NCBI GenBank assembly: GCA_965207675.1 | Contig: CBDBMY010000006.1 | Span: 23,358-87,357, forward strand | Origin: Vicinamibacterales bacterium | GTDB lineage: Bacteria > Acidobacteriota > Vicinamibacteria > Vicinamibacterales > UBA8438 | Direction of reading: 5' to 3' | Length of the DNA: 64,000 bases | Shown: positions 34,982 through 59,355 of the stretch, in pieces | Position numbering within the stretch: position 1 is the stretch's first letter | How the letters are laid out: each line of letters starts with the position of its first letter | Notes under the pieces: generated by a model | Databases searched by the model: none | Told to the model about the DNA's origin: nothing | Seen by the model: the letters and a program-made list of their open reading frames with translations, nothing else | Program-made: the position numbers and the translations under genes

Positions 34982-35070
34982 GGAAAAACCTCGGCGCGAG
35001 GAGTCCGTAGCGCGACTTCCTGCCGGGCTGGACCCGCGTGGCGGCCGGAGCCACCGGCGACGCTCTCCGG

Positions 35071-38528: not shown

Positions 38529-38702
38529 CGTGCCCCGCACTTTAGCGCCGGGTTGACCCCGACGCAAGCGGCGGGACGCATCTCCACGCTACGCCGTCTT
38601 CGGCCCTGACGCGTGCCGACACCACCGTCCCGACGCGCACAGTCGGATCTCACGCATGCAGAGACGGTGTATGCTTTGTCACGATTCGTCTTGGATGGCG
38701 AC

Positions 38703-41700
38703 ATGAACGTGACCCCATTCCACTGCGGGCCCTTCGCGAACGAGAGCGAACGCACCGCATTCGAACATCTCAAGAACCGCATCGAGTCGTCGCTCGGCGG
38801 CGACGGCGACCGGTGGATTCTGCTGACCAACCTCACTTGGTCGGTCACGCACCAGTTCCAGGCGGACGAGATCGACGTTGTGGCCATCGGTCCGCCGGGC
38901 GTGCGCGTCATCGAGGTCAAGCACTGGTCGCGGCGATGGGTCGATGAGCACGCGGACCTCGTGGAACAGGAGGCGGACAAAGTCACGAACAAGGCCCGCA
39001 AGATCGGGACCACCTTGCGCAAGTCCGTACCGAACCTCGGCCGCGTGGACGGCGTGGTCCTGTTGACGCGCGAATCGCCGGACATCAAGGAGCTGGCCGG
39101 CCGGGTCATCAGGGGTGTGCGGTTCTGCACGCTGAAAGAGTGGCGCGAGGCCATCGACTTCGACGGGACACCAGCGCTGCGCCCGCAGGAGGTCGCCCTT
39201 CTCGGCCGTCGGCTGGAACCCAGGAGTGCTGTCGCCCTCGACGGCTCGCTCCGGCGGTTCGCCGGCTACGTCAACCTCGAACGGCGCACGCCCCCGGTCG
39301 AGCGGTTCCACCGCGTCTATCGGGGGGTCCACGCCACCCGCCAAGACAAGGTCGTTCTGCACCTCTACGACCTGTCGGCGAGCGATGCAGCGGACGCAGA
39401 AACGCGGGCCAGCCGGGAGTGCGAAGCCCTGCGTCGGCTGCAACTGCACACCTGGGCGCCGCGCGTACTCGACTCGTGGCAGCCGGCCCCCGGCTACGCG
39501 GGCGAGATGCACTTCTTCACCGTCACCGACCCGCTGGCCCCTGCCCTCGAGAAGCGCGCATCGGACCGGTCCTGGGACACCCCGGCGCGGCTGGCCTTCG
39601 CGCGGGCCGCGCTGGACGCCTTGGTCGAGCTGCATGGCGAGACGGTGGACGACGGACCGATCCTGCACCGCAACCTCACGCCGCAGACGGTCCTCGTCCG
39701 GCACGACAACACGCCGATCTTCACCGGATTCGAGCTGTCGAAGATTCCGTCCGAACGGAGCGTGGCGTCGGCGGGGCCGCCGACCGGAGAATGGCCGCCA
39801 TCGACGGCGCCGGAAGTGCGCGCGCAAGGACTGCACGCCGCGGACACCCGCTCGGACCGCTACGCGCTCTGCGCCAGCCTGCGCATCCTGTTCGAGGGCC
39901 GGCAAGACGACACGAGCCGCCAAGCCCTCGACGTGCTGGCTTCGGGCATGATGGACGATGCGTCGCAGCGTAGCGACCCGTCCGCGCTCGACGCGCGCCT
40001 GTCGGAGCTGCTCGGCGAGTCCCCGCCCGCCCCGCCGCCTCCGCCGGCGCGGTTCTGGACGGAGGACCAGATCGTCTCGTTCCGCGGCAGCCGGTATCGC
40101 GTGGTCGAACGACTCGGCGCCGGCGGGGTGGGCACGGCGTTCAAGGTCGTGCAGATCGACCGTGACGGGCAGGAGGAGGGAACCTACGTCGCCAAGGTGT
40201 GTCACGACGAAGAGGCGGGGCGCCGCGCCGTGGACGCCTACCGGCTGGCGCGGTCACACCTGCAGCACCAGGCCGTCTCCGGCATCTTCGAGGTGGCGTC
40301 GGCGTGGCGCGAGAACGAGTTCACGGCGCTCATGACCTGGGTCGACGGCTCGCCGCTGCGCGATTTCGCGGGGGTCCTGCCGCTCCTCGTGGACGACCTC
40401 GACGAGACCTCCGCCGACGCGCTGACCCTCTTCTGGCTACAGACGATGTGCAGGGCCCTGGACGTGCTGCACCGCAACGGGCTCGTGCACGGCGACGTCA
40501 ACCCCGGCAACCTCATCGTGTCGGGGCGCGACCTCGTGCTCACCGACTACGACTTCGTCTCGCGAATCGACGAGCCAATCGCCGCGCCCGGCGCCGTGCT
40601 CTACTGCTCGCCGTCCCACCAGGCGGGCCGGGCGGCCTCGCCTTCCGACGACCTGTACGCGCTGGCGGCCAGCTTCTTCCACGTGATGTTCGAGCACGAG
40701 CCGTTCCGCCACGACGGGACGCTGGCAAAGGAACGCGGCCTGAACTGGGAGGCCGTCGCCCCCGAACGGCGCGCCGAGTATCCGTCGGTGGCGGCGTTCC
40801 TCAGCCGGGCCACCCACCCCGATCCGGATGAGCGCTTCCATTCCGCGGCCGAGGGGCTGAAGGCCCTGGCGGCGGAGCCGCCCCCCTCGGCCGCAACCGT
40901 AGCACCGCCCGGTCAGGCGACCGTGCCGCCCGCAACCGCACTCGAAGCGTCAGGGACGGGCTCCGCGAGTCCCCCCGCGCCGTCGGCTCGCGCGGCAGCG
41001 ACGCCCGAGGCGCCGGACACGCGACCGGAGAGCCCTGGAGAGACTCCCGGCGTTCGTCCGCCTTCTCCCGGCGCGGCGCCGGATACGGGATCCGCAGGCC
41101 TCCCTGCATCGTCGGCCGCCGCGACATCATCCGCTCCCGAGCCGTCGGCGCCCCCAACCTCCGCCGCCGCGCCGCCCGAAGGCCGCCCCTCGCCGCGCGG
41201 GACGTCCGATCCGGCGGCCGTACGTCGCGAGCAGCGCGTCGAGTGGCTGCGCTGGCTGCTGCAGTCGTATCCAGGCTCGCGGTGGGGAAACCGGGAGACG
41301 CGGGGGCTCGATAGCGACTTCGCGGAGCAGACCTACGTCGAGACGCCGCTGGAGGCGGCGTTGTACGAGGACGTGCGGGGGCGCCGCATCCGGCTCATCG
41401 TGCTGTGCGGCAACGCCGGCGACGGGAAGACGGCACTGCTCCAGCATCTTGCCGCCGGGTTCGGCCTCGAACGCCGGGCGTCATCCGAGCGCGTTCTGGA
41501 AGGAACGACGGACGACGGCCTGGGTGTGCGGATGAACCTGGACGGCTCCGCGTCGTGGCGGGGGCGGTCGGCCGACGACCTGCTCGACGAGTTCCTGGCC
41601 CCGTTCCGGGACGGGCCGCCATCGGAGGATATCGCGCATCTGCTGGCCATAAACGACGGGCGCCTGCTGGAGTGGATCGAGCGGGTCGAGCGGCGGGACG

Positions 41701-43259
41701 GCGAGACTCCCCTCACGGAAGCGCTGTATGCCGCCCTGCAGCGGGTTCAGCAGGATCGGTGGGTGGAAACGCCCGTCGCCGAGCGAGACGAGCACGAACG
41801 GGAGGCGCGGAGGTCGCTCACCGATGAGGCCGCCAGCGTGGAGGCCGGCGCGCGAAACGAACGCGAGTACAAACTCGAGGACTTGACCGGGACGGGCGAT
41901 GGCGCTGCAGCAGATGACGCCGGCGATGCGGAAGAGAACGCCAACCTCCAGCCGGCTCCCGATGCCCACATTCGGTTCGTCAACCTCAATCAGCGGTCGC
42001 TCGTCGGCGGCGTGACCACCGATGGGACCCGCATCGAAACCGGTTTCCTGGAGAGCCTGGTGGACCGCCTGTACGGCGCCGGCCGGGCGCCGGAGATCTG
42101 GGCACCGTGCGCGACCTGCTCGGCGCAGGACCGCTGCGAAGTGTTCCGGGCGAATCGCCTGTTCGGGCCGGCCGGCCTCCCCGGGGCCGCCCCTGCGGAG
42201 GCGCGGTCCCGCGCGCGGGACCGGCTCTTCGAGGCGCTCCAGGCCGTCCACCTGCGCGGCGAGACCCACGTCACGGTACGCGAGCTGCGCGCGGCGCTCG
42301 TCTACATCCTGTTCGGGGTCCACTTCTGCGACGACTACCACGACGGCGCCATCGCGACGGGCCGCCGCCGGGTTCCAGACTACTGGGAGCCGTCCTTCGG
42401 TCCGTTTCAGGAGCCCGGTGCTCCGGCAGAGACCGCGCCGACCTCTCTGCCCTGGTGGGACCGGGCGTTCGATCCGGAGTCCCCGGCGCGGCAGGGGGCC
42501 GTGCTCGCGGACTTGGCGCGCTTCGACCCGGCGCTGGACGCGCATCCGCGTATCGACCGACACCTGATGCGCCCGACGCACGCCGGCGTCCGCCGGGGCG
42601 TGCCAGGGTTCCCCGACCTGGACCTCGCCTCGGCGCGGCGGCGCGCGTACTTCGAATGGCGCGAGCACGACATCGAGGCGCTCACCGGCGATCCGCACGC
42701 CCTCGACCTCGCCCACGGCCGTCACCTCCGACGGTTCCGCGGCTTGGCGGTGGACGATGAGGCGCGCGAAGCGGCTTGCGAAGCGCTCTGCGCCGGTATG
42801 GCCGGTCTGGCGACGCTGCCCCCGCAGGCCTACGACCGTCCGGGAGTCCCGTTGCGCATCACCCCCCGGACCCCGACGGAGACCGCGTTCTGGATCGAGA
42901 AGGCGGCGGATCGCTTCCACCTTGAAGCTGACCTGCCGCCCGCGGCCAGCGGGCTCGATCGCCTGCACCGTCAGGCGAGTCTCGTCTACCGCTACGCGGA
43001 CGGTCGCGAGGAACGTCTCCGCCTCGGCGCGGAGCTCTTCCACCTGCTGATGGAGCTGAGCGAGGGGTACCAATTGGGTGACGCCTCGACCGACGACACG
43101 TTCGCGCATCTGTCGATCTTCGTGCAACGGCTGGAGCGCGAGGACGACCGCCGGCTGCTCGCCTGGAACCCGATGCGTGACGACCGCATCTACGAAGTCG
43201 TGGCGGAGAGCGCTTCCGAAGACGGACAGCAACGATTGGCGCTTCAACCGCTGGAATGA
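38703..43259 (+). CDS. giant NERD - pseudokinase - Ser/Thr-type kinase - P-loop NTPase protein (gene A of the candidate system); the start may be GTG 38613
   Basis: Track ORF 38613..43259(+), with an internal ATG at 38703 preceded by GGATGG. NERD-like D..E.K block ADEIDVVAIGPPGVRVIEVKHW (about 38868-38927). Kinase-like domain 1 has HRNLTPQTVLV and no DFG Asp (about 39255-40020). Kinase domain 2 has LGAGGVGTAF, YVAKV, HGDVNPGNLIV and LTDYDF (40113-40553). A Pro/Ala/Ser linker follows (about 40875-41222), then Walker A LIVLCGNAGDGKTALL (41409-41432), LLAINDG, and C-x2-C-x5-C in WAPCATCSAQDRCEVF (42108-42137). Confidence 0.85.
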   Translation: MNVTPFHCGPFANESERTAFEHLKNRIESSLGGDGDRWILLTNLTWSVTHQFQADEIDVVAIGPPGVRVIEVKHWSRRWVDEHADLVEQEADKVTNKARKIGTTLRKSVPNLGRVDGVVLLTRESPDIKELAGRVIRGVRFCTLKEWREAIDFDGTPALRPQEVALLGRRLEPRSAVALDGSLRRFAGYVNLERRTPPVERFHRVYRGVHATRQDKVVLHLYDLSASDAADAETRASRECEALRRLQLHTWAPRVLDSWQPAPGYAGEMHFFTVTDPLAPALEKRASDRSWDTPARLAFARAALDALVELHGETVDDGPILHRNLTPQTVLVRHDNTPIFTGFELSKIPSERSVASAGPPTGEWPPSTAPEVRAQGLHAADTRSDRYALCASLRILFEGRQDDTSRQALDVLASGMMDDASQRSDPSALDARLSELLGESPPAPPPPPARFWTEDQIVSFRGSRYRVVERLGAGGVGTAFKVVQIDRDGQEEGTYVAKVCHDEEAGRRAVDAYRLARSHLQHQAVSGIFEVASAWRENEFTALMTWVDGSPLRDFAGVLPLLVDDLDETSADALTLFWLQTMCRALDVLHRNGLVHGDVNPGNLIVSGRDLVLTDYDFVSRIDEPIAAPGAVLYCSPSHQAGRAASPSDDLYALAASFFHVMFEHEPFRHDGTLAKERGLNWEAVAPERRAEYPSVAAFLSRATHPDPDERFHSAAEGLKALAAEPPPSAATVAPPGQATVPPATALEASGTGSASPPAPSARAAATPEAPDTRPESPGETPGVRPPSPGAAPDTGSAGLPASSAAATSSAPEPSAPPTSAAAPPEGRPSPRGTSDPAAVRREQRVEWLRWLLQSYPGSRWGNRETRGLDSDFAEQTYVETPLEAALYEDVRGRRIRLIVLCGNAGDGKTALLQHLAAGFGLERRASSERVLEGTTDDGLGVRMNLDGSASWRGRSADDLLDEFLAPFRDGPPSEDIAHLLAINDGRLLEWIERVERRDGETPLTEALYAALQRVQQDRWVETPVAERDEHEREARRSLTDEAASVEAGARNEREYKLEDLTGTGDGAAADDAGDAEENANLQPAPDAHIRFVNLNQRSLVGGVTTDGTRIETGFLESLVDRLYGAGRAPEIWAPCATCSAQDRCEVFRANRLFGPAGLPGAAPAEARSRARDRLFEALQAVHLRGETHVTVRELRAALVYILFGVHFCDDYHDGAIATGRRRVPDYWEPSFGPFQEPGAPAETAPTSLPWWDRAFDPESPARQGAVLADLARFDPALDAHPRIDRHLMRPTHAGVRRGVPGFPDLDLASARRRAYFEWREHDIEALTGDPHALDLAHGRHLRRFRGLAVDDEAREAACEALCAGMAGLATLPPQAYDRPGVPLRITPRTPTETAFWIEKAADRFHLEADLPPAASGLDRLHRQASLVYRYADGREERLRLGAELFHLLMELSEGYQLGDASTDDTFAHLSIFVQRLEREDDRRLLAWNPMRDDRIYEVVAESASEDGQQRLALQPLE

Positions 43260-43270
43260 GGTGAGCACGC

Positions 43271-45085
43271 GTGGCGCACGCTGATCGAGAGATCGTCGAG
43301 AACGCACTGTCGCCGGACCTGGTCAAGGAAGTCTGGACCGGCAACTACGACAAGGTGCTGCCGGTGACGTTCTTGGGATTCGAAATCTCTGCCATTCTCC
43401 CGGCCGTCCTCTATATGTTCCGCTTCGGCCACCGTCGCGGCGCCGGAGACTTCGTCTCGACATACGGCCCCGCATCCGGGACGCCGGCCCAGCGGCGTCG
43501 GGAGACCACCGTCGAGCGGATCGCTGCGAAGCTCGCTGAAATCGAGGAGCTGACCGGGTTCGAAGGCGAGGTCGAGAAGGCTGTTCTCGGTGACCTACTG
43601 CTCTGTTTCTGTCTCGAAAACGTCCGCCACCGACTGGGCCGGAACCAGCAGGTACAGCGTGTCGCGCCGACGCACTACTTGGCGAGTTGGATTGACTTGC
43701 CCTACAGCGTGGGCAACCTGCGCTTCGTGCCCGAGATGATTGTCGCCATGCTGGCGAATCGACGCGCGGGCGACTACGTCACCGCCAGTGATGAGATGGA
43801 CCGGACACGCTTCCCTGTCCTGAACCGCTACGAGGAAAACCCGTTGTTCCGGGCCTTCGGTCAAGGGGTCAGCCGCCGTAGCGGCTCGTCGAGCGATCTC
43901 GCGTCCGATTGCTTCGACGAGACAGACGATGCCGTGGGTCTGGATCAACTCCTGACAATTCGACTGGCCCAGCAACTGCGAGCCGCTCCGCAAAAGGTCA
44001 GGCCAAGCAAGACACAGGGCGCCGACGCGCACAAGATCTCCAATCAGCGCCCCATCGCCGAGGCCGCCGGCCGACGATTCTCGGACGACATTCGACGCTT
44101 CGTGCGCTCGTACGCCGATTCCGCGCCACGGCACGCCTTCGTGGACATGCTGGAGTCGTGCATCACGGTCGGACTGACCACCATTCTCACCAGCACCGTC
44201 GAGGTGTTGTTCCAGTGGGAGGCGACGGGCAGGGTGACGGATGTCGACGCACAACACCCGGCGTCGCTGTTCGTGGACTGCTCCTGCGGCGCCGACGATC
44301 GACTTCGGCTGCGGGCCGAGCAGTCGACAGACGACTTGATGCGGCGCCTCGAACGCGTTCCGGTGATTCTCATGACGCTGCGCTTGCTGGACTACGAGGC
44401 GCGCTCCCGGTCGCGAATCAAGTCGCAGCAGGTCACTACGCGACCGTACGCGACAGATTGGCTGAACCTGCTCGGGGATCTCCTCCACGACCGCCACCCC
44501 GAGGCGCAACGCGTCGCTATCCTCATCGAGGACAAGGCCGAGAAGTTGGCCGACAGAGTGGCCGACGACCATGAAGATGTGGCCAGCATGCTTCGCGATG
44601 ACGGACCACATCCGGTCTTTGGACTAGCCGGCGGACTGATGGCGCTGATGGGACGGCAGCCCCGCGAAGATCTCACCAAGATGGTCGATTCCAGCATGGC
44701 CGTCGGGCGCCCGAACGGGCTGGCCATCAAGCGCCCGACAACTCGCGGCAGCGGTCCGGGAACGCGCCGACGACGCGACGTTCGCGCACTCGTCTTCACC
44801 GATTCGACGCTCGAGTACCTCGTGCACCTCCATCTGCTGCCCGGCCCGAAGGGCGGCGACCGCGCCAGCATCGTCTCGTTACTGGACTTCCTCAGGGAAG
44901 ATTATGGCCTTCACATCGATACTGCGCCACCAGGCATGACGATCTCCAACGAGGTTCTGGGTCGCAACCGGGCGACACTGGAGCGGCGTTTGCGCGATCT
45001 CGGCCTCCTGATCGGCGTCAACGACGCCGAGCGGATGAAGCGGCTTACACCTCGCTTCGAGGTCGCCGAAGGGATTCTGGGGTGA
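43271..45085 (+). CDS. 604-aa protein of unknown function (gene B of the candidate system)
   Basis: GTG start 11 nt after the gene A stop, with GAGGTGAG upstream. Its stop overlaps the gene C start (GTGA). The amino-acid composition is protein-like and differs from the shadow frames. I recognise no catalytic motif. Confidence 0.8.
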   Translation: MAHADREIVENALSPDLVKEVWTGNYDKVLPVTFLGFEISAILPAVLYMFRFGHRRGAGDFVSTYGPASGTPAQRRRETTVERIAAKLAEIEELTGFEGEVEKAVLGDLLLCFCLENVRHRLGRNQQVQRVAPTHYLASWIDLPYSVGNLRFVPEMIVAMLANRRAGDYVTASDEMDRTRFPVLNRYEENPLFRAFGQGVSRRSGSSSDLASDCFDETDDAVGLDQLLTIRLAQQLRAAPQKVRPSKTQGADAHKISNQRPIAEAAGRRFSDDIRRFVRSYADSAPRHAFVDMLESCITVGLTTILTSTVEVLFQWEATGRVTDVDAQHPASLFVDCSCGADDRLRLRAEQSTDDLMRRLERVPVILMTLRLLDYEARSRSRIKSQQVTTRPYATDWLNLLGDLLHDRHPEAQRVAILIEDKAEKLADRVADDHEDVASMLRDDGPHPVFGLAGGLMALMGRQPREDLTKMVDSSMAVGRPNGLAIKRPTTRGSGPGTRRRRDVRALVFTDSTLEYLVHLHLLPGPKGGDRASIVSLLDFLREDYGLHIDTAPPGMTISNEVLGRNRATLERRLRDLGLLIGVNDAERMKRLTPRFEVAEGILG

Positions 45086-48000
45086 ACTGGACGGCACTGC
45101 ACGGGACGCTCCTCGGCCGCGCCTTCGAGAGCCTCCTGGGCCGGCCAGAACCCGGCGCGATGGCGTTCGTGCGCTGTCTGGCCCCGGACGTGGTGGCTGC
45201 GCTGGCGGCCGATGCGACCTTCGCGCCGAATGAGTGGCGCGTGTTGCGCGTGGCGGATACGGACGACGAGTCGAACAGGAGCACAGACGCGGACACGGCG
45301 GTCGAGCTGCGCGAGGCCAAGGGCGATGCGACGCTGCTGCTAGTCGACACAAGCCGGGCCGGCGCCGGCATGGACGGCATCTACAACGCCGCGCGCGAGG
45401 TCAACGAGACCGAACTGTTCGCGGACGCGAAGCGACTGGCGAGCATCGAGGTTGCGAACCGGCTATCACCCGTGCACCGTACCTATAGCGAACGCGCGAT
45501 CCGCAAAGCCCAGGGGGTGGGCCGCTACGCTAGCGTGTCGCCGTGGATGGAGTTCGACTTTCTCTGCCGCGTGGCCGCGCGCCAGCGCCATCCTGGCAAG
45601 TACCTGCATCTCCTTGGTCTGTGGCCGGTCGAGGTGGTGGCGGACGGAGACGTCGGTGCGGAACTCGCAGACTCGCGCCGGTTCGTGGATCGCCTGCTCG
45701 GCGTGGCCGCCGCCCGCCTCACCGTCCCTGCACGCATCGCATCGCTTCGGATCGCGGCAACCGGCGCACAGCGGCAGGATCTCGAACGCTTCCTTGAAGA
45801 AGCGGCGACCCGACCGTTGCGCGACGCCCTGCAGGCGCTCGCCGATCGACCGCATCTGTGGGTCGGGTCCCTGCCGGTCCACCCGCCCGACGACATCCAG
45901 TCCATCGAACTCACCTCTTGGCGCAACCGCAACGGGAAAATCGCCAGGTGGTCCGGGCTGATGGAACCGTCCGAGGCGGAGGCGCCGGAGCTCGTCCTGG
46001 ACCCTGACGCCCAGTCCGCGAAGGACTATACGAACCTGGAGGTCCGGTGGAAGACCCGGCCCGCCGACCTGGAGAAGAACGCCGTCGACTACCGCGTAGC
46101 GGTGCTGACGGACCAGGACGAGGAGCTGGCCTCCCGCGATGTCCGCCACTCCGCGCGCCAGCAGGAGAAGTGCCGGTTCAGCAACGACGACTTCTCGGCG
46201 CTGAGCGACGACGCCCTGCTGTCGGCCCGCGTGGTCGTCTCCGTCATCGGCCGCGACGCGATCGAGCGGCAGTCGAGCGAGGAGTTCGTCATCCGGTTCG
46301 GCGAGCGGCGTGATACGACGGCCGTCGGCGCGGGCCGGAAGGTCCGCACCTTCAGTGAAGGGCTCATCGAGGGCCCGGGACGAGAGATCGCGGCCGCGGT
46401 CCCCGAGAACCCCACCTGCATCGCCGCCGACGCGCGGGGCTTCGTCGTGCTGCGTCCGCCTGACGCGCGGCTCCGCAAGAGCTTCCGGGTGTTCCGCCCA
46501 CCGTTGATCCGCGACGTGGAGAGCGAGTGGACGAGTCGCCAGGGCGCGCTCGGACGCTGGCGGGTGCGCGTCCGGGCGTCGGGCGAACGGGCGGCGAGGC
46601 TGGAGTTCGTCCCGGCGGAGGGCGGAGACGGCACCGCGTGGGACCGCACCGTCGCCGCGAGCCGGCGGCTGGCGGAGCGGTTCCGGGACTCCGGCGGCGG
46701 AGTTGGCCAAGTCCACGACGACCAGTCCAGGTCGTTCGAGACGGTGAAGGGGTACGTGCTCGCGTGGACGGCGCTACTCGACGCCGGCGATCCGTCGCTC
46801 GCCATCTGCAACACGGTCGAAGTGCAGTCGCTGTCGGGGCAGACCATCGGCCTGATCGTGCTGCCGGCCCATCCCCTGCGCATCGCCTGGCTGGCCGCCT
46901 ACGACAACCTGCTGTTCCACGCCGTCTTCGACGAGGGACAGGCGCCCAGGCAGGTGAGGGACGAACTGCGGGGGCTCGACGGCGCGATGTTCCCCGCACT
47001 CCTGCCCAACCCGGCCGGTGGGGCGTTCGTCTTCGCCGACACGCTTGGGTTCCACGCGGTGGGCATGGTGCCCGATGACGACCGGGAGCCGAAGGCGGCG
47101 GTGGCGGTGCTCGCCCGCACCCTCGGCGAGAGCGAGTCGTCGGAGAGTGCACCCACCGTCGGCGAGCAGAGCGCTGCGGTCCTCGGGAACGAGATCGTCA
47201 AGTATCTCGAATGCCACGACTCGTCCCGCCTGTTGCGGTTGCACGCCCTCCGGGCCGGCGATGGTCTCACCGTCGCACGAGCCCTCGGCCGCGTGCACAA
47301 GCACTACGACGGGGACAGCGACGAGGCGGACGACGACGCGGCGGACATCGCGCGTGTCGAAACCGCAGCCGCCCCCGCCTTCACGCTCGACCTGTATCCA
47401 TCCCGCGAGCAGCGAACCATCGCGGGGCGGTTCATCGCGGAAGCGCGGGAGAAGCGGCGGAGCGGCGCCGGCGTTCTGACAACCGACGACCAATGGATGC
47501 TCGAATCGATCAACCTGCCCGGCGGCGTCGCCCTTCCCCGCCTCCGATGGGCGCGGAAGCAGAGCGGCGACCCGGAGACGGCGGCGCACCTTGCCGTCGC
47601 GTTCGACACGTTCGAGTCGCGCGTGGAGATCGACGCGGGGGACGCACCGGCCGCCCCGTTCCGGGCGTTCGGCCTGATGTCGTTCTTCGAGCGCGACTTC
47701 ACGGCAGCGCCGACCCCGTCCTGGCGCAGCGTCGTGCCGCGATCCGGCGGCGGCGAGAAGCACCCGTCGGAACGGGCCCACACCGAGCGGCTGGACCGCC
47801 TGGGCCAGCGGATCCTGGAGGCGGTCGCACGGCACGTCACCAAGGGTGACGGCGATCCGACTTCGCACACGGGATGGCGCTGGCCCTGGGGAGTCTCGAA
47901 CACGACCGGTGACGCGAATCACGGAGCCCCGGTACTTCGAACGACGATTCCACCCGAGAAAGCCGACAGCATCACGGAACTCCACCGCTTGTGCGACTGG

Positions 48001-49730
48001 GTGGTGACCCTGGATCGCAATGCTGGCATCGAGTACTTCGACTCGCCGCAGGACAATCGGGACATCTACGATGCCTACGTCATCGACTGCGTGCCGGAGC
48101 GCGAGGATCTCGGCTGCCTGCAGCTGATCACCTCGACCAGCAACATCGAGGAGGTGCACGACCTGCTCGACGAGGCACTGGTGCGACTGGGGCTCAGCCG
48201 CACGCGGCGGAACGCCGACTTCCTGCTGGAGCACCTCAAGTCGCTGAGCGGGCGGCTCGCCATCCGTCTGACCGGCAACGCCGCCCCGACGTCGGAACTG
48301 ATCGCGCTGGCCATCGCCCGCGCCAACTGCCGCCGGACGACGGAGAACGATGCCTGCTGGACGTCGCTGGAACGCGGCTTCCTCGTGCCGGTGGACGATG
48401 TGCGCGACCTGCTGCCGCCGCTGCAGGACGACGAACCCAACGGGGCCGCCGGCCGCGAGCGGCAAACCCGTCCAGACCTGATTCACGTCTCGACGCAGCC
48501 GCGCCGGGGACTCCTCTTCCGGTTCATCGAGGTGAAGCACCGGCGCCACCTGCGCCAAGCGCGTGCGCCGGAGCTGCTGCGCAGCGTCCAGGAACAAACC
48601 GCCGCGCTTCGCTCGCGCTGGTACGAGTGGTACGGCCACGAAGGCGTGTATTCAGCGTTCCGAGCGGTGCGGCGCGCCAAGCTGGCGCGGGTACTGCGCT
48701 TCTATGCGGACAAGGCGCACCGGCACGGTCTGCCGACGGAGCGATACGAGGAGATCGTCGCCGAGCTCGATCGCATGGTCGAGAAGGGCGCCGACTACGC
48801 CATTTTTACAGGCGCCGGACGGCGACCGCGGCTGGGTGTTCTGCCCCGAGTACGCAGGACAAGAGCCGCTGGAGATCTCGCCGGCCGGCTCCACGGTGCG
48901 GGTCTTCCTTTTCGGTCCCGGCCGATTGCCGGACGCCGACTTCCGTTTCGGGACGGACCCTACGGCGGCCGGAGCGGCCAGCCCGCCCGGGGGCGGGACC
49001 CCGGGCGACAAAGGGCGCGGGGAGACCGCCTCTTCTCACCGCGCGACGCCGACGGTCGCTGGAGGGGAGCGGACCGCCGGCGCAGCCACACCCGGTTCCG
49101 GCAGAGGGAGCAAAACCGCCGACGAAAGCGGATCCGGCTCGGACACATCCGATCCGAGCGGTCATGCCCCCTACGCAAGCGAAGTCACGCCGGACCCGGT
49201 GGACCCGACCGGCGGCGGAAGTGGATCCGGCCCGACCGCGACGGATCTGAACGGCGGTCGCGGTGAGGCATCGGGCGGCGACGGCAGCGCCGCGCCACGG
49301 CCCATGGTTCCCGGCGGCGACCCGACGCGCCCAGGGGGCGCCCCGGCCGCGGACGGCGTCGAGCCGGCCGAGGTCTCCACGCCGGTTCCCGCCATCACGC
49401 TGGGCGCGGACACTCTCACCGGCGCCGACGTGCAGTGGCCCCTGACCGTCAAGGGCAACCCCCACCTCCTCATCGGCGGCCTGCCCGGCATGGGCAAGAC
49501 GACCTGCCTGCTCAACCTGTGCCGGCAGATGGTGACCGCGGGCGTCCATCCGATCATCTTTTCCTACCACCAGGACATCGACGAGCGCCTGGTCGACTTG
49601 GTTGCCTCGGTGCGGTTCGTCGACTTCGACGGACTGGGCTTCAATCCGCTGACGGTGATGAACGCTGAATCCCCGCGAGCGTATCTCGATGTCGCCGGGT
49701 CGCTGCGTGACGTCTTCGGGGCCATCTTCC
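45082..49730 (+). pseudogene. 5' part (about 1550 codons) of gene C: large protein with a PD..EVK nuclease-like motif and the Walker A of a HerA/FtsK-type ATPase; broken by a 1-nt indel in a T5 run (48803-48807) and truncated by the IS21 insertion at 49730/49731
   Basis: Residues 1-1241 are in the frame of ORF 45082..49266. Sense then continues in the frame of ORF 48563..49759 (..LQAPDGDRGWVFCPEYAGQEPLEISPAGSTVRVFLFGPG..). PD-(D/E)XK-like block RPDLIHVSTQPRRGLLFRFIEVKHRRH (48472-48537). A Gly/Ser/Pro/Thr/Asp linker follows (about 48950-49387). Walker A LLIGGLPGMGKTTCLL (49475-49501). Confidence 0.8.
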
Positions 49731-49815
49731 TCAGTGGACGGGTCAAAACCGGCCATTAGTGGACACCGCAAAACCGGCCATTTCCGGCGGCCCGAGACGG
49801 GCGTTGATCTTTACT

Positions 49816-50571
49816 TCACGGCCCCTGTGTTCGCAAGGTCGTCTGGACCTTGGTGCGCCAGCTCCGGGGCCCGCACTTCAGCACGTGCGCGTGATGGAGG
49901 AGGCGGTCGAGCAGCGCCGTGACGGCGGCGGTGTCGCCAAGCAGCTTCCCCCAGTCGTCGACCGGCCGGTTCGAGGTGAGCATCGTGGAGGCCCGCTCGT
50001 AGCGGCGCATGATCAGTTCGAGCAAGTCCTCGGCCGCGGTGTGGGGCAGCTTGCGCATGCCGAGGTCGTCGATGATGAGCAGGGGTACCCGGGTCAGCTC
50101 GGCCAAGTAGTCCTTTCGGGTCTCGGCGAGCGTCGCCTCGGCGAGCTCCTCGAGGAGGGTGTGGGCCTCGCGGTAGATGACGCGGTAGCCCTGCTGGATC
50201 GCGGCGCGGCCGATGGCCTGAGCCAAGTGGCTCTTCCCCGTACCGGGCGGGCCGATCAGGAGCGCGTCCTCGCGCTGGGCGATGAAGCGGGCGGTGGCGA
50301 GCTCGAAGACGAGGGCGCGGTTGATCTTCTTGTTGAAGGCGAAGTCGAAGCCGTCGAGAGCGCGGTCGGGGTCGCGGAAGCGGGCCTGCTTGTGTCGCCG
50401 GGCGAGCAGGCGGTCCTGGCGCCGCTGGAGCTCGTCGGTGACGAGGGCGGCGACGAGGTCGATCGGGACCATCTGCTCGGCCTGAGCCTGCTGCAGGCGG
50501 GTTTCGAGGACGTCGGCCATGCCGGAAAGGCGGAGCTTGCGAAGGGCCTGGTCGAGTTCGACGAGATTCAT
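49816..50571 (-). CDS. istB: IS21 helper ATPase IstB
   Basis: 251 aa. Walker A LLIGPPGTGKSHLAQAIG, Walker B PLLIIDDLG. Its start overlaps the istA stop by 4 nt. Confidence 0.95.
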   Translation of the reverse strand: MNLVELDQALRKLRLSGMADVLETRLQQAQAEQMVPIDLVAALVTDELQRRQDRLLARRHKQARFRDPDRALDGFDFAFNKKINRALVFELATARFIAQREDALLIGPPGTGKSHLAQAIGRAAIQQGYRVIYREAHTLLEELAEATLAETRKDYLAELTRVPLLIIDDLGMRKLPHTAAEDLLELIMRRYERASTMLTSNRPVDDWGKLLGDTAAVTALLDRLLHHAHVLKCGPRSWRTKVQTTLRTQGP

Positions 50572-52157
50572 GACGGGTCTCCTGTTCTGCGGTCGATGAG
50601 ATCGCGGTAGAGGGTCAGTTGCCGGATGAGGGGGTCGACCTGGCGCAGCGAGAGGGGCGCGACGGGCCGGCGGTCGAGGTAACGCCGCAGGAAGCGGTAG
50701 GTGGGCACACCGAGTTCGAGGGCGGCGGTGGCGGCCTCTTCGGCGACGGCGGGACCGTGCTTCCTGGCCAGGGCGAGGACGCCTTGGATGCGGCGAAAGC
50801 CGGCGGCGCCGTCGTGACGGTGGATATGGTCGCAGATGGTGGAGATGGCCGGACCGGCCCGCTTGGCGGCGGCGAGCAGGGCGAGGGTCTTCGGTGGAGT
50901 GCGTGCGGGCCGGTCTCGGTCCTCGATGCGATGCCAGCCCCGCGGCGCGCGCAGGTGCTCACGGAGGAGCTGGCCGGTGTGGGGGTCAAGCAGCCGCACG
51001 TGGGCTGCGTTCCACTGGACGTGAACGCGGCGGCCGATCCAGCCCGGCGGCGCGCTGTAGTAGGCCGCCGCGACCTCGACGCAGCCGTCCAGATGCACGG
51101 TGCGGTGGCCGTACTGGTAGTAGCGGAACGGCTCGAGCGGCAACGGGCCGAGGGCCGGGCGCTCCTCGGCAAACATGGCGGCGACCTGGCGCTTGGTCGT
51201 GCCGTGGCTGCGGGTGTCGGCCCAGCGCCGCTCCCAGCGGTCGAGGTAGGCCTGGCCGTCGTCGAGGTCCTCGAAGCGGAGGCCGCGCAACGGCGTCCTC
51301 TTGGCGTGGCCGACGCCGGCCTCGACCTTGCCCTTTCGATCGGGGTCTCGGACGCGGCACGGCAGGGCGACGACGCCGTAGTGGGCGAGCACGTCGCGGT
51401 AGAGCGGATTGAGGGTGGGGTCGTAGATGTCGGGCGTGAGGACGCCCTCCTTGAGGTTGTCGAGCACGACGACACGTACGGTGCCGCCCAGCCGCCGGAA
51501 CGCCCGCTCGTGCAGCTCGGCCCAGACCTGGGCACTCGACCGGCGGACCAGCAGCCGCACCGACTTTCGCGAGTAGCCCAGGGTCAGGACGAAGAGCCGT
51601 GTCCGCCGGTACTTGCCGGAGTCGGGGTCACGGACCATCGGCCCGTCGCCGTAGTCGACTTGAGCTTCCTCGCCCGGGGCGGTGGTGATGACGGCCCGCG
51701 CCTCGAAGGTGGGCTGCTGTCGGAGCGTCGAGACGAAGCGCCGTACGCTTGCATAGCCAGCCGGGAAACCGTGGTCGTCGACCAGGTCCTGCCAGATGGC
51801 CATGGCATTGCGCCCGCGGCCAAGGGCCTCGGCGATCAGCTCGCGGTACGGCTCGCAGGCACTCGCTTGCGGCGCCCGACCAGGGCGGTCTTCGGACGCG
51901 GGCACGACGAGCGTCGTGCCCGCGCTGGCTGCCGGAGCCCTCGAAGAGTCGGTGGACACCTCCGACGAAATGGCCGGTTTTGCCGGATGCGCGGGCGGGC
52001 GGCCACGGCCCCGCACCCCCACGCCGGCGGCCCTCAGGTAGTGGCTGGCCGTCTCGCGGCGGACCCCGGTGGCCCGTTCGATCCGCCGCAGCGACCAACC
52101 GAGGCGCCCCAGGGCCAGGACCTGCTGTCGTTTCTCTTCAGCCAAGACGTTGCTCAT
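50568..52157 (-). CDS. istA: IS21 transposase IstA
   Basis: Track ORF 50568..52193(-). Start at MSNVLAEEKRQQVLALGRLGWSLRRIERATGVRRETASHYL (HTH). DDE-type core (..EEAQVDYGDGPMV.., ..VVLDNLKEGV..). Confidence 0.95.
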   Translation of the reverse strand: MSNVLAEEKRQQVLALGRLGWSLRRIERATGVRRETASHYLRAAGVGVRGRGRPPAHPAKPAISSEVSTDSSRAPAASAGTTLVVPASEDRPGRAPQASACEPYRELIAEALGRGRNAMAIWQDLVDDHGFPAGYASVRRFVSTLRQQPTFEARAVITTAPGEEAQVDYGDGPMVRDPDSGKYRRTRLFVLTLGYSRKSVRLLVRRSSAQVWAELHERAFRRLGGTVRVVVLDNLKEGVLTPDIYDPTLNPLYRDVLAHYGVVALPCRVRDPDRKGKVEAGVGHAKRTPLRGLRFEDLDDGQAYLDRWERRWADTRSHGTTKRQVAAMFAEERPALGPLPLEPFRYYQYGHRTVHLDGCVEVAAAYYSAPPGWIGRRVHVQWNAAHVRLLDPHTGQLLREHLRAPRGWHRIEDRDRPARTPPKTLALLAAAKRAGPAISTICDHIHRHDGAAGFRRIQGVLALARKHGPAVAEEAATAALELGVPTYRFLRRYLDRRPVAPLSLRQVDPLIRQLTLYRDLIDRRTGDPS

Positions 52158-52275
52158 GCCGCGCAGGAACACGCAGTTCCCGGCCGGCGTCAACGTCTCG
52201 GGCTGCTATCGGAAATGGCCGGTTTTCAACCGTCCACTAATGGCCGGTTTTGGGTGTCCACCGAGGCCATCTTCC

Positions 52276-52973
52276 CCGAGTTGGGCGATCTCCAGTGCGA
52301 GAGCATCCGCCGGGCGATCAAGGAGAGCTTCAGCGAAGCGGGTTGGACCGGGTCGCAGGCAGGAGCGCGGGAGCCGGAGTTCGGTCGTTTCGTCGAGATC
52401 CTGCGCGACCAGCCGAAACCGGACCGTGGACTGCGCACGCTGCTGGCGCGTCTGACCGAGCTCGACGACTACGGCTTTTTTAGCCCCGGAGAGACGCGCG
52501 AGAGTCTCTGGAAGAGCGATCGGGCGACCGTCGTTCGCATCCACACGACTCAGAACGACGCGCTGCAGCGGGCCTTCGCCTCGCTCGTGTTCTATGGCCT
52601 CTACAAGGACATGTTCCGCCGGGGCATTCAGGATCGGATCACGCATGCCCTGATCTTCGACGAAGCCCACCGGGCAGCCGGACTGAAGCTGATCCCGACG
52701 ATGGCGAAGGAATGCCGGAAGTACGGCATCTCGCTCGTGGTCGCTTCCCAGGAAGCCAGAGACTTCGACGCGTCGTTGTTCTCGGCCGTCGCCAACTACC
52801 TCGTACTGCGCCTGACCGAGGCGGACGCGAAGGCGCTGGTACGGAACGTCGCCACGGCGCGGCAGGAGCGCAGCCTCATCGACAAGATAAAGCAGATGGC
52901 CCGGTTCAGGGCGCTGTACTTCTGCGAAGGCAAGCAACGGCCATCGTCGGTCAGCCTTCACGCGCTGGACTGA
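52276..52973 (+). pseudogene. 3' fragment (about 232 codons) of gene C: Walker B and the C-terminal part of the HerA/FtsK-type ATPase
   Basis: Tail of track ORF 50619..52973(+): PELGDLQCESIRRAIKES...RVVRIHTTQNDALQRAF..ITHALIFDEAHRAAG (DE at 52659-52664)..KYGISLVVASQEARDFD..LVLRLTEADAKAL. It is in phase with the 5' part once the IS is removed. Confidence 0.85.
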
Positions 52974-53032: not shown

Positions 53033-53764
53033 TCAGCGTGGGCCGGCGGCCTCCAGCCGATCCGCGACGCGGCGGGCGAGGGTCCGCAAGAACCGGGCCT
53101 GAGCGGACGGGCTGCCCCGCGCGAACAGCCGATCGAGATCGGCGCGGATCACGCCGGGGAAGATGCCGCTTTCCTCGGCGGGCCGGCACCCTGCGGCAGC
53201 CCCGGCGTCCGGCCTCCAGATCGCCGCAGGTTCCAGGCGGTGTTTCGTCCAGACCTCCTCGACGCCCATTCGGAAGTACGGCCGGAGCTTGTGGCGCGAC
53301 CGCTGGCTGCGGTCGATCTCGACGACCAGGGTGGGCGGCGGCAGGCCGGTGCGCACGTCGACATAGTCCTCCACCTGCCCCAGCGCTCGCGCCGCCTCGG
53401 CATCCAGATAGAAGCTGGCGTCGGCCTCGAACGCGCCGTCGTCGCTCAACAGGCGCGTCGCCCCGGCCGGCCGCCACGCGACGTCCACACCGCTGTCGGC
53501 GAGGACGTCCTGGACGCGGAAAAAGAGTTGGCCGGCCGCCATCGTCTGCACTTCATGCGTCATGTCCGGCACGGCCACGAACTCGGCCAGGCCGGTGTGC
53601 TCGTCGTACCGGCAACGCGGCGCGTCGTCGTGGCCGGTCAGGCGGTCGAAGAGCGCGCGCGGCATCGCGACCTCGACCCGTACCGGGGCGTCGAGGCCGC
53701 CGGCCGGCGCGAGCTCGCCGGCCGGCCGGCGAACGATATCGGAGGCAACGGTCGGGGATGCCAT
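53033..53764 (-). CDS. Uma2-like PD-(D/E)XK protein, paralogue 1 of 3
   Basis: MASPTVASDIV...EADASFYLD...PPPTLVVEIDRSQRSRHKLRPYFRMGVEEVWT matches the Uma2 pattern (D.. hhhhE-x-D/S ..K..Y...GV.E.W). It aligns over its full length with 53805..54542 and 56175..56906. Confidence 0.7.
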   Translation of the reverse strand: MASPTVASDIVRRPAGELAPAGGLDAPVRVEVAMPRALFDRLTGHDDAPRCRYDEHTGLAEFVAVPDMTHEVQTMAAGQLFFRVQDVLADSGVDVAWRPAGATRLLSDDGAFEADASFYLDAEAARALGQVEDYVDVRTGLPPPTLVVEIDRSQRSRHKLRPYFRMGVEEVWTKHRLEPAAIWRPDAGAAAGCRPAEESGIFPGVIRADLDRLFARGSPSAQARFLRTLARRVADRLEAAGPR

Positions 53765-53804: not shown

Positions 53805-54542
53805 TCAGCGCGGGTAAGCGTCGAGGATCCGCCGGGCCACACGGCGGGCGAGACGCCGGGCGTGCTGGGCCTGCTCGCGCGGATCTCCACCCGTGCAGAG
53901 CGGAGCGAGATCGGAGCCGGTCAACCCCGGGAGGACCACGCTGGCCGGAACCGACCGGAAGCCCTCGGCCGCACCCGCATCGGACGTCCAGATAGTGACG
54001 CCGTCCTTCCGATCGGAAGTCCACGTCTCCTTGACGCCCATCCGGAAGTATGGCGCGAGCTTGTGCCGCGACCGGCGGCTGCGGTCGATCTCCACCACCA
54101 GGTCGGGAGGCGCCAGACCCTTGCGCACGTCGACGTAGCCTGCAATCCCGCGGTCGCGCAACGCGCGTGCCGCTGCCGCGTCGAAGTAGAAGCTGGCATC
54201 GGCCTCGAAGGCGCCGTCGTCGCTCAGCAGGCGCAACGCACCGGTCGCCTGCCAGCCGACATGACGCCCGTGTTCGGCGAGCACGTACCGGACACACGAC
54301 ACCAGGTCGCCGATGGCCCAGGCCGGCCGCTCGTGCGCCACACCCGGCTCGGCCACGAACTCCGCGAGCCCCGTAAGCTCGTCGTACCGGCAGCGGGGCG
54401 CGTCGTCGTGCTCCGTCAGCCGGTCGAAGAGGTCGCGGGGCATGGCGACCTCGATCCGCACCGGCGCGTCGAGGCCGCCGGCGGGCGCCGGCTCGGCGGC
54501 CGGTGGACGAACGACATCGGGGGCAACCGTCGGCGATGGCAC
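53805..54542 (-). CDS. Uma2-like PD-(D/E)XK protein, paralogue 2 of 3
   Basis: Track ORF 53805..54563(-). A GTG at 54542 aligns with the ATG of paralogue 3 ((M)PSPTVAPDVV..). Core APPDLVVEIDRSRRSRHKLAPYFRMGVKETWT. A conserved 20-nt leader (gttgtg(t/c)tacg(c/t)t..cac) is shared with paralogue 3. Confidence 0.7.
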   Translation of the reverse strand: MPSPTVAPDVVRPPAAEPAPAGGLDAPVRIEVAMPRDLFDRLTEHDDAPRCRYDELTGLAEFVAEPGVAHERPAWAIGDLVSCVRYVLAEHGRHVGWQATGALRLLSDDGAFEADASFYFDAAAARALRDRGIAGYVDVRKGLAPPDLVVEIDRSRRSRHKLAPYFRMGVKETWTSDRKDGVTIWTSDAGAAEGFRSVPASVVLPGLTGSDLAPLCTGGDPREQAQHARRLARRVARRILDAYPR

Positions 54543-54622
54543 GTGTCGAGCGTAACACAACACCCGCGGGGTCTGCCGGGAGGATCAGCGGAACGGTCCG
54601 TCACGCGCTGGCGGCATTCCGC

Positions 54623-55423
54623 TCATGCGGCGAGAACCGCGTCGAGATTGGCACGTTCCAGAAGCGCGGCGTCGGCCGGCCGCTCCAGGAAGGGCTCCAC
54701 GTCGCGGATCAGGACGCCGGTGTCGAGGTCGGCGAGCCGCGTCCGAAGCAGGCGGCGCCAATCCGCGGCCCGGTGGCGGCCGGCGCCCTGCGTCTGGTCC
54801 AGGGCATGCTGGAGAAGCTCCATGTTCGGCACGACGGGCGGGCGACGCGACCGGTACCACACCAGGTCGAACCAGTCGCGGCCCTTCGGATACTTGCGCG
54901 TGAGCAACGCGTGCAGCTTGCCGGCCATCAGCGACGGCAGGTCGTAGTGACCGATCACGAACGTGAAGTGGCGGGTGACGACGGAGCGCCGGACCGCCGC
55001 CCCCGCGGGCGGACGGGTGTCGATCTCGACCTTGATGGAGAGGTTCTGTTGCTGATGACCCGACAGACCCGCTTCCGCCAGCAGCGCCGCGGTTCGGACC
55101 CAGGCGACCTGCACCGGCTTGCGGTCGATCCAGCGGACCGTGCTGTCGAAGCCGGCGAGATGGAGGTCCCGCTTGAGCTTGCGCAGCCAGCGCACGGGCT
55201 CGTACCCGTCGGACGAGACCTGCGAGAAATCGAGGTCTTCGGAGAACCGCGGGAGGCCCTCGAGAAGCCGCAGCGCGGTTCCGCCGACGAACGCGACGGC
55301 CCGCGATGCCTCGCTCTCATGGAGCGACCGCATGACGAAAGCCTGGAGGTACTCGCGCAGAGCGTTGAGCCTGCGGCCGGGATCGTCGAACCGCGACGCC
55401 GCGTCGAGGGCCCGGTCCTTCAC
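54623..55423 (-). CDS. abiEii: AbiEii/AbiGii-family nucleotidyltransferase toxin (type IV TA)
   Basis: The last 266 codons of track ORF 54623..56077(-). The GTG start overlaps the abiEi TGA (GTGA). NTase block AVAFVGGTALRLLEGLPRFSEDLDF. Later blocks LMAGKLHALLTRKYPKGRDWFDLVW. Confidence 0.85.
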   Translation of the reverse strand: MKDRALDAASRFDDPGRRLNALREYLQAFVMRSLHESEASRAVAFVGGTALRLLEGLPRFSEDLDFSQVSSDGYEPVRWLRKLKRDLHLAGFDSTVRWIDRKPVQVAWVRTAALLAEAGLSGHQQQNLSIKVEIDTRPPAGAAVRRSVVTRHFTFVIGHYDLPSLMAGKLHALLTRKYPKGRDWFDLVWYRSRRPPVVPNMELLQHALDQTQGAGRHRAADWRRLLRTRLADLDTGVLIRDVEPFLERPADAALLERANLDAVLAA

Positions 55424-56906: not shown

Positions 56907-57051
56907 GTGCCTAACGTAGCACAACTCGCGGTCATCCGCCCACGCGCGACCGCCCGACCCGCGACAATCGCTCGGCCCGGGTTGCTTCGACCCGCACTGG
57001 CGCGTGGAGTCGGCACCCCCGCGTCCTGGGCACCGACCCACGGCGCTGCCG

Positions 57052-58955: not shown

Positions 58956-59355
58956 CGTCGCCTCCCCCAAGAAGCCGTGATGAAACGCTGCAGCATTCTA
59001 CCCACCCGCGATGCAGTCCTGCGCGCATCACCCTGCTTCGGGTTGCCCATGCCGAGCCGGCTCCCGCCGCCCCTCCCCCGGGCCCCCTTCAGCCGGCCGG
59101 CTCCTCGGCGCGCCCTCCCGTCGCGAACGCGGGTTGCGCGGTAGGCTGCCGCCGGGGGAATCGGCGGGCGCGGGACGTCCCTCGGAGGTCGAGCCGCCGT
59201 TCGCATCGAGCGCCGGCACCCGGGAAGAACCGCCGCGCGGCATGCTCCGCGGAGGCCAGCGGGTACACTAGACGGCAACTTCGAATTCCGGAGGCGTCAT
59301 TCCCGACCAGCCCGAGCCCCGCCAGCCGCCGGCTTCCCCGGCCGTCGATCGGCCG

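Follow-up and report, generated by a model that had tools for sequence, protein, structure and literature searches.

Gene C is the last of three genes (A, B and C) of a cassette in a Vicinamibacterales bacterium, and was analysed within a 64,000-nucleotide stretch of its genome (contig CBDBMY010000006.1, positions 23,358 to 87,357), hereafter the window. It very probably represents the large subunit, now disabled, of a self-contained defence cassette; it is homologous to MAD8 of the MADS defence system and distantly related to DndH/DptH. By sequence it belongs to the MAD8/DndH superfamily, of which it is a divergent but full-length member, and it sits in a trio of the MAD6-7-8 type, an architecture already described computationally. 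Gene C is neither a canonical DptH, whose hidden Markov model (HMM) and partner genes are not matched, nor a curated MAD8, whose cut-off is not reached and whose methylation module is missing. In close relatives, the intact protein consists of about 1090 residues of recognition/DNA-binding region followed by a PD-(D/E)xK endonuclease, a disordered linker and a HerA/FtsK-type ring ATPase. In this genome, gene C is a remnant broken in both catalytic domains and the system is non-functional, because a +1 frameshift cuts the nuclease domain and a 2.5-kb IS21 element splits Walker A from Walker B.

The gene was reconstructed from three pieces (Table 1). Since spurious long open reading frames (ORFs) are common at the G+C content of the window (70%), coding potential was checked besides the reading frames. 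The start codon is a GTG at 45082 that overlaps the stop codon of gene B (GGGGTGA), and homologues begin at the same residue (MEWTxLHG). Removing one T of CATTTTTACA (48803-48807) together with 49731-52275, which holds the IS21 element and one copy of the 11-bp target repeat GGCCATCTTCC, yields a 1781-aa product free of stops. An earlier note on this DNA had joined the same three pieces into one protein of about 1780 aa, with the motif order RPDLIHV, FRFIEVKH, linker, GLPGMGKT, ALIFDEAH and KYGISLVVASQEARDF, and all of these are present in the repaired protein. Its estimate of a linker of about 145 aa comes to 146 aa, while the spacing between RPDLIHV (aa 1130-1136) and FRFIEVKH (aa 1146-1153) is 9 aa and not 12.

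A search of 5.8 billion proteins returned 824 relatives, and the repaired gene C is collinear with hundreds of intact homologues of 1650-1790 aa. Coverage is 100% in the best matches, intact proteins with lengths of 1778 aa (92% identity), 1781 aa and 1770 aa. Collinearity of the three pieces with a single homologue and retention of the nuclease-like block in intact homologues were the two points on which the earlier note had staked its reconstruction; single intact homologues align throughout and keep the block. A 13-sequence alignment is gapless through both lesions, at the junction of ADYAI with QAPDGDRGWVFCPEY (ADYAI followed by QAPDGDRGW) and at that of FGAIF with PELGDLQ. In a single-sequence search of a 1.84-billion-protein library with the N-terminal region, the weakest of the best 150 matches listed stood at about 1e-47, a strength at which no bridge to DptH would be visible. 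These relatives are annotated merely as 'ATP-binding protein' or 'hypothetical', except that JGI automatic names give DptH for several of them.

The locus of the closest relative (L087) has 90-95% DNA identity to the window and is syntenic with it: both have the PSCyt/PSD1 gene upstream, and downstream both carry Uma2, AbiE, peptidase S15 and BCCT genes. The repaired coding sequence has a third-position G+C content (GC3) of 0.86 and a ratio of nonsynonymous to synonymous differences per site (pN/pS) of 0.20 relative to L087, compared to 0.24 for gene A and 0.16 for gene B. Because GC3 and pN/pS of the repaired gene resemble those of the intact genes A and B, purifying selection acted on gene C until recently.

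At the T run, L087 reads GCCATTTCG-CAGG and is one base shorter than the window (GCCATTTTTACAGG). A programmed frameshift at this site was ruled out, as every homologue in the 13-sequence alignment is uninterrupted there. The second lesion belongs to the IS21 family of insertion sequences (IS), as evidenced by its IstA and IstB proteins, imperfect terminal inverted repeats of about 54 bp and a target-site duplication; an internal 20-mer repeat, AAAACCGGCCATT, is found solely at its two ends. Duplications of the IS21 family are usually 4-8 bp, which puts the 11 bp seen here on the long side. L087 represents the empty site, on which the flanks of the window overlap by 12 bp (L087 14626-14637), including the 11-bp repeat, and this comparison supports a duplication of at least 11 bp. 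That gene C was inactivated recently is indicated by its pN/pS value, by transposase genes that are still intact and by an 11-bp duplication without mismatches. The earlier note had likened gene C to restriction-like defence effectors: the architecture is that of one, but the gene is dead in this genome.

Decayed copies are also found in other genomes (L029, L060, L065 and L070). In L029, a Vicinamibacterales locus, gene C is without its first 230 aa and is frameshifted near aa 893, with only aa 3-116 of gene A left and gene B missing. In L060 and L065, gene C lacks the first ~200-280 aa and gene B was not found; gene A was not found in L060 and is matched only in its N-terminal part (to aa ~964) in L065. 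L070 carries additional gene C fragments downstream (16986-18183).

The C-terminal domain of gene C is a HerA/FtsK-type ATPase, as proposed in the earlier note. The motifs GLPGMGKTT and IFDEAHR, the arginine/lysine of CRKYG and the glutamine of LASQ are invariant in 109 homologues (down to 45% identity), and together with the structural matches these invariant motifs place the domain in the HerA/FtsK clade. An AlphaFold model of residues 908-1648 of the homologue P0098, which has a short linker, displays a mean predicted local distance difference test (pLDDT) value of 84. Foldseek searches of the PDB gave the C-domain of DndH as the top match (7ES4; E 4.6e-17, TM-score on target 0.80, root-mean-square deviation 3.4 Å), followed by Sulfolobus HerA, VirB4 and the HerA subunits of SIR2-HerA and DUF4297-HerA. 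With PADLOC, aa 1437-1773 matched DndH (3.9e-17) and mad8 (2.4e-16), and the family profile aligned with the ATPase of the canonical DptH family (hhalign 98.4%, E 7e-15). On gene C, Pfam gave P-loop matches only, all of them below threshold, and a PDB sequence search gave only weak ATPase matches.

The PD..EVK motif that had been flagged as nuclease-like is well conserved, with D1132, E1150 and K1152 each kept in at least 90% of the 109 homologues. In the P0098 model, RPDLIYV and FRFIEVKY are predicted to lie on adjacent strands, with one strand before them and long helices and two strands after. This D..ExK part has pLDDT values above 90, and in the model its elements follow an alpha-beta-beta-beta-alpha-beta order, as expected for a PD-(D/E)xK core. 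Motif and model thus support the assignment of a predicted nuclease. The gene C family consensus over residues 1099-1152 (GFxVPVDDV ... RPDLIxV-x11-FRFxEVKxRR) parallels that of canonical DptH over residues 1096-1156 (WVPiSmEE ... SDD-x17-YPvEVKIG), with the same D..EVK spacing. The arrangement that characterizes DptH/DndH, in which a HerA/FtsK ATPase lies C-terminal to a PD-(D/E)xK nuclease, is also that of gene C. The DptH-type logic suggested in the earlier note is therefore right as to a nuclease combined with a translocase, but the nearest named family is MAD8.

The N-terminal region, in which the earlier note recognized no motif, is indeed blank in Pfam and NCBIfam over its first 1100 residues, but it aligns with MAD8. 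The route to MAD8 was through partial tblastn matches on plasmids. A Piscinibacter gummiphilus plasmid (L089) bears an eight-gene operon whose MAD1-MAD8 proteins are all over the NCBIfam cut-offs, and its MAD8 (12397-17973, 1858 aa) gives a control score of 231 bits on the MAD8 model NF047742. The gene C family profile aligned with this MAD8 and a Bacteroides homologue over 1149 columns (hhalign 99.9%, E 1.5e-31), from aa 11-1283 against 21-1305, with weaker matches at Walker A and Walker B beyond this range; BLASTP of gene C against the same MAD8 gave 4.6e-21. This homology over aa 11-1283 suggests that the N-terminal ~1100 residues form a recognition region of the MAD8/DndH type. In the structure model of aa 1-1200, an alpha/beta domain comes first, then a bundle of helices, then a region rich in beta structure (aa 274-510). 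The predicted order is compatible with the N-terminal part of a proposed eight-domain layout of DndH, without proving it: an inactive superfamily 2 (SF2) C-domain, a helix-turn-helix (HTH), two beta-sandwiches, a target recognition domain (TRD) and an inactive methylase with a nested TRD (PMC10853773).

A weak link connects MAD8 in turn to canonical DptH, whose family aligns with it over 626 columns (hhalign 84%, E 7e-6). Taken together, the alignments of gene C with MAD8 and of MAD8 with DptH suggest that the three belong to one superfamily, in which gene C would be far nearer to MAD8. When 113 gene C family members were compared by profile with 47 canonical DptH sequences, the N-terminal 1300 residues taken by region were collinear and weakly similar, with E-values of about 0.0045-0.04 (0.0045 and 0.0079 among them). 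The comparison with DptH by HMM and structure that the earlier note had called for was thus positive for the ATPase but not for the N-terminal HMM.

The two partner genes point to the same system. Gene A encodes, in order, a NERD domain (aa 45-128), a pseudokinase (HRN), a kinase (aa 495-745; glycine loop GAGGVG, HGD and DYD motifs), a Pro/Ala/Ser linker, a DndF-type P-loop core (GNAGDGKT at aa 933, Walker B asparagine in AIND at aa 1012) and a C-terminal region. It matches Pfam NERD and Pkinase, and NCBIfam MAD6 at 3.5e-53, which is below the cut-off. Its C-terminal half aligns with residues 788-1359 of bona fide MAD6 (hhalign 99.95%, E 1e-37), with an identical Walker A. The core also aligns with the DptF P-loop (hhalign 92%, E 5.5e-7), as does that of MAD6 (91%), while gene A scores 10 bits on TIGR03238 (DptF) against a cut-off of 50. 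By sequence, gene A is a divergent MAD6-type protein with a DndF core. In four loci (L027, L036, L062 and L078; gene A region ~6000-8200), only the DndF-like core was matched (query aa ~830-1547); the NERD and kinase half seems to be absent or replaced there, as in a modular N-terminal fusion.

Gene B matches the full NCBIfam MAD7 model (2.6e-33), at 116 bits against a cut-off of 410, and its homologues match Pfam PF26611 (MAD7). It occupies the position of DndG in DndFGH, and no similarity to DptG was found by HMM or profile comparison. Its synonymous divergence from the closest relative (pS 0.43) is far above that of gene A (0.14) and gene C (0.17), which would suit a specificity subunit that is exchangeable or diversifies. 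Tandem paralogues of gene B were observed in a Caldilineaceae member, a gammaproteobacterium and Thioalkalivibrio sp. HK1, with two copies in L020 (6317-9984), three in L071 (4286-9996) and four in L086 (2423-9996); the apparent insertions in gene B of these loci were considered as insertion sequences and rejected, being the tandem paralogues themselves.

Compared to MADS (Maestri et al. 2024; NF047742), gene C shares with MAD8 a collinear N-terminal region and nuclease block and a C-terminal P-loop ATPase, and it likewise comes third on the same strand, preceded by genes for a MAD6-type kinase and a MAD7-type protein. However, their identity is only ~22-25%, the curated MAD8 signature is not reached, and the gene C operon is without the MAD1-5 genes of MADS (regulator, methyltransferase, AAA ATPase, MAD4 and S subunit). 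The Walker A motifs differ (GLPGMGKT in gene C, GVQGGGKS in MAD8) and the ATPases align weakly (48%), a pattern consistent with the swapping of HerA/FtsK modules known from DndH. In turn, DndH/DptH (TIGR03237; 7ES4) resembles gene C in length (~1700-1800 aa), in the nearly identical coordinate of the D..EVK motif and in a HerA/FtsK ATPase with a glutamine sensor-1 and an upstream arginine, whereas the N-terminal 1250 residues lack detectable direct similarity and are linked solely through MAD8. As a trio, DndFGH also begins with a gene bearing a DptF-type P-loop and a Walker B asparagine and ends with DndH in the place of gene C, but partner B is MAD7-like instead of DptG, and the A-B-C cassette has no phosphorothioation genes.

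Stand-alone variants of DndFGH have been described in which winged HTH, NERD, pseudokinase or kinase domains are fused to DndF (Rakesh, Aravind, Krishnan, NAR 2024, PMC10853773). They have in common with the cassette the fusion order of gene A (NERD, inactive and active kinase, DndF core), a trio uncoupled from the modification module and a C protein made of a nuclease and a 'captured' HerA/FtsK domain; accessions of the gene C family were not found in one supplementary file of that paper. SIR2-HerA/Nezha and DUF4297-HerA also combine a HerA-type ring ATPase, a strong structural match, with a nuclease or NADase effector. In these systems, however, the effector is separate and HerA has its own N-terminal barrel, whereas gene C is one chain of 1780 aa that includes a recognition region.

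In bona fide MADS operons (L089 6552-17973; L088 6315-17619), MAD6 carries a DndF-type P-loop core with GNAGDGKT and AIN motifs, and MAD8 is a DndH-like protein of 1850 aa. L088 is a Bacteroides finegoldii plasmid, on which a PP2C phosphatase gene directly follows MAD8. At the sequence level, MADS thus seems to share the origin of its restriction half with DndF and DndH. An explicit sequence link between MADS MAD6/MAD8 and DndF/DndH was not found stated in the literature surveyed, and a 2026 review lists the restriction mechanism of MADS as unknown (PMC12904381).

The three genes occur in the same order and strand, tightly spaced, in nearly all of the ~70 loci with upstream DNA. The trio is found in Acidobacteriota, Planctomycetota, Chloroflexota, Latescibacterota, Proteobacteria, Spirochaetia and other phyla, in settings that include syntenic Vicinamibacterales loci, an unrelated metagenome-assembled genome (MAG), where it lies amid housekeeping genes and toxin-antitoxin pairs, and a Rhizobium phaseoli plasmid. 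Genes A-C have their closest relatives, including those at 75-84% identity, in Vicinamibacterales (Acidobacteriota) MAGs (L007-L012, L023 and L027), which makes this order the probable source of the window. Clustering of the flanking ORFs of ~80 loci revealed no family common to more than seven of them; the two clusters of that size correspond to the syntenic Vicinamibacterales neighbours and to HsdM-like N6-adenine methylases from different phyla. The latter lie within 6 kb of the cassette (L017, L024, L039, L044, L076 and L080 among these loci), a proximity that could reflect co-location in defence islands or, as in MADS, some loose functional tie with methylation. Genes of the dnd or ssp type do not recur beside the cassette in the ~80 loci. 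In the window, no PP-loop (SGGxDS) or NifS-type motif was found in any frame, and hence no gene of the DndC/SspD type. The methylation module of MADS (MAD1-MAD5) was found neither in the operon of the window nor in ~70 homologous cassettes.

The proposed mechanism is modelled on better-studied relatives. DndFGH is reported to nick and translocate DNA (PMC11662687), and mad6, mad7 and mad8 are each required for MADS defence (bioRxiv 10.1101/2023.03.30.534895). By analogy with DndFGH and with MADS genetics, A, B and C would form a complex in which the task of A and B may be to detect or pick out foreign DNA or signals of infection. Gene C protein would then load on foreign DNA, pump it with its ATPase and nick or cut it with its nuclease. 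The P-loop of A may sense nucleotides, with the NERD and kinase modules serving as back-up effectors or regulators, as proposed for the related fusions (PMC10853773). A wider proposal is advanced here tentatively, as possible and somewhat doubtful: the trio would be an autonomous, modification-independent defence, either a methylase-less descendant or an ancestor of MADS, B would be an exchangeable target-specificity subunit, and MADS would destroy DNA by HerA/FtsK translocation and PD-ExK nicking.

Several results weigh against reading gene C as the large subunit of a MAD8-type defence trio related to DndH/DptH. The curated models of MAD6, MAD7, MAD8, DptF, DptG and DptH all missed the cassette or remained below cut-off. 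The MAD8 models are partial, that of PADLOC covering the ATPase only and NF047742 the first 200 residues (cut-off 175 bits); the latter gave no match with repaired gene C or P0001 up to an E-value of 10, and only 15-17 bits (aa 46-213) in two remote family members. TIGR03237, which spans DptH residues 7-1292 with a cut-off of 620 bits and scores 747 bits on a Bacillus control, gave no match with the gene C protein or with eleven homologues, remote members included. Direct profile comparison with canonical DptH was significant in the ATPase alone, whether done whole-length or by region, and the best N-terminal E-value has a probability of 8%. The model of aa 1-1200 is confident only to ~aa 640 and poor from aa 680 to 1200; what it matches in the PDB, GH2-type beta-sandwiches and the SF2 helicase Brr2, it matches weakly. 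For the nuclease fold, no independent structural match was found among the matches listed, the top 50 of which are filled by the ATPase. The mechanism for the gene C subfamily is drawn entirely by analogy, and as MADS depends on its methylation genes, a trio that lacks them would need another basis for telling self from non-self. Finally, the single-base insertion in the T run could be a homopolymer assembly error; the IS insertion by itself suffices to inactivate gene C.

Other explanations were weighed against the same evidence. A split MADS, to which the trio would contribute the restriction half while the methylation half lies elsewhere, for example in the N6-adenine methyltransferase at 31634-33175, is improbable. 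All three proteins are full-length homologues of MAD6, MAD7 and MAD8, this Eco57I-like methyltransferase has a weak mad2 match, and HsdM-like methylases lie near the cassette in seven of the ~80 loci. However, the methyltransferase of the window is on the opposite strand, separated by two unrelated genes (DUF1501 and PSCyt/PSD1), and matches far better as an ordinary type II enzyme, while MAD1, MAD3, MAD4 and MAD5 are absent; over 90% of the loci are without a methylase within 6 kb, and methylases are common in defence islands anyway. We consider it very unlikely that gene C encodes a canonical DptH/DndH and so would restrict DNA within a DndFGH system that depends on phosphorothioates and spares phosphorothioated host DNA, even though the logic, size and C-terminal domain order are the same, the ATPase is closest to the DndH C-domain, several homologues bear the automatic DptH name and gene A has a DptF-type P-loop. 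The silence of TIGR03237, the unmatched DptG, the low DptF score and the lack of PP-loop/NifS motifs in the window and of recurrent dnd or ssp genes at the ~80 loci all speak against it.

The least credible alternative, to which almost no weight is given, would make gene C a DNA-transfer ATPase of a mobile element (a VirB4/TraC/FtsK-like coupling protein) and no immune effector. Weak NCBIfam, Pfam and tblastn matches of the ATPase to VirB4, TraC, TraD, TrwB and FtsK, and the high structural rank of VirB4, are in its favour. Such matches nevertheless cover the P-loop domain only and rank below DndH-C and HerA, and no conjugation genes were found in the window region or the homologous loci. The other 1400 residues are MAD8-like with a conserved nuclease motif, and the neighbours are AbiE, Uma2 and PDC-S01.

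These neighbours, with the type II methylase, make the region look like a loose defence island (Table 1). Genes next to the cassette bear 'planctomycete' Pfam names. A plus-strand ORF at 35238-38609 (1123 aa) was considered as the first gene of the operon and rejected as a shadow of the minus-strand PSCyt1/PSCyt2/PSD1 gene, and the plus-strand ORFs at 22983-35230 gave no defence matches, the real genes there being mostly on the minus strand. The AbiEii partner of the AbiEi antitoxin is expected at ~54600-55400 on the minus strand, as in L001 and L087. In these two loci, the peptidase is shorter and separate (634-635 aa), with a separate 243-aa Uma2 gene just downstream in L001 and none called in L087; the 931-aa ORF of the window is possibly a fusion through loss of a stop codon, or an artefact of ORF calling. 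About 34 kb from the cassette, an ORF on the minus strand (4074-5183) contains FTDPPYG, a typical motif IV of N4/N6 DNA methyltransferases.

Table 1. Features of the cassette and its surroundings, in window coordinates.
Feature	Position	Strand	Description
PDC-S01	28717-29931	+	
N6-adenine methyltransferase	31634-33175	-	type II, Eco57I-like, 2.6e-82; weak mad2 match 1.2e-15; 5.4 kb upstream of cassette
DUF1501 gene	33521-35140	-	
PSCyt1, PSCyt2/DUF1549, PSD1/DUF1553 gene	35199-38567	-	GC3 0.95, strong Pfam matches
Cassette A-B-C	38613-52973	+	three genes, order A, B, C
Gene A	38613-43259	+	1548 aa, intact, MAD6-like
Gene B	43271-45085	+	604 aa, intact, MAD7-like
Gene C, piece 1	45082-48802	+	frame 1, aa 1-1240; recognition region (N-terminal) plus the greater part of the predicted PD-(D/E)xK nuclease domain
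Nuclease motif RPDLIHV-x9-FRFIEVKH	48469-48540	+	D1132, E1150, K1152; predicted nuclease domain 48364-48937
T5 run	48803-48807	+	net +1 insertion, frame 1 to frame 2, within nuclease domain
Gene C, piece 2	48804-49730	+	frame 2, aa 1241-1549; end of nuclease domain, linker, start of ATPase
Linker	48950-49387	+	aa 1290-1435; 146 aa, low complexity; G 23%, A 14%, P 14%, T 11%, S 11%, D 8%
Walker A GLPGMGKT	49478-49501	+	aa 1466
Target-site duplication, left	49720-49730		11 bp, GGCCATCTTCC, perfect direct repeat
IS21-family element	49731-52264	-	2534 bp
istB	49816-50571	-	NCBIfam IS21_help_AAA 5e-76, over cut-off
istA	50568-52193	-	NCBIfam transpos_IS21 7.5e-72, over cut-off
Target-site duplication, right	52265-52275		11 bp, GGCCATCTTCC, perfect direct repeat
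Gene C, piece 3	52276-52973	+	aa 1550-1781; remainder of ATPase; stop codon 52971-52973
Walker B ALIFDEAH	52647-52670	+	aa 1674
R/K-YG...ASQ block	52719-52766	+	aa 1698; arginine finger and Q sensor-1, KYGISLVVASQEARDF
Uma2-family genes	53033-53764, 53805-54563	-	downstream of gene C
AbiEi antitoxin gene	55420-56061	-	
931-aa ORF	56175-58970	-	X-Pro dipeptidyl-peptidase (S15 and PepX_C) joined to C-terminal Uma2 nuclease-like domain

The window thus captures a defence cassette switched off very recently by an insertion sequence, a common fate of costly or self-toxic immunity genes. The family is large and spread over many soil and water phyla, its N-terminal region alone matching 663 clusters at 50% identity; the MADS relative of the trio has been validated experimentally, and the gene C subfamily is known from sequence. 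Trios that lack a methylase pose the question of how the host's own DNA escapes attack. By sequence, the comparison joins the MAD6-7-8 core of MADS, the NERD/kinase-fused DndFGH variants and canonical DndF and DndH. The link from MAD6/MAD8 of MADS to DndF/DndH is the most useful by-product of the analysis, and the comparison offers a concrete candidate mechanism for MADS restriction, in which a nuclease would act together with a HerA/FtsK pump.

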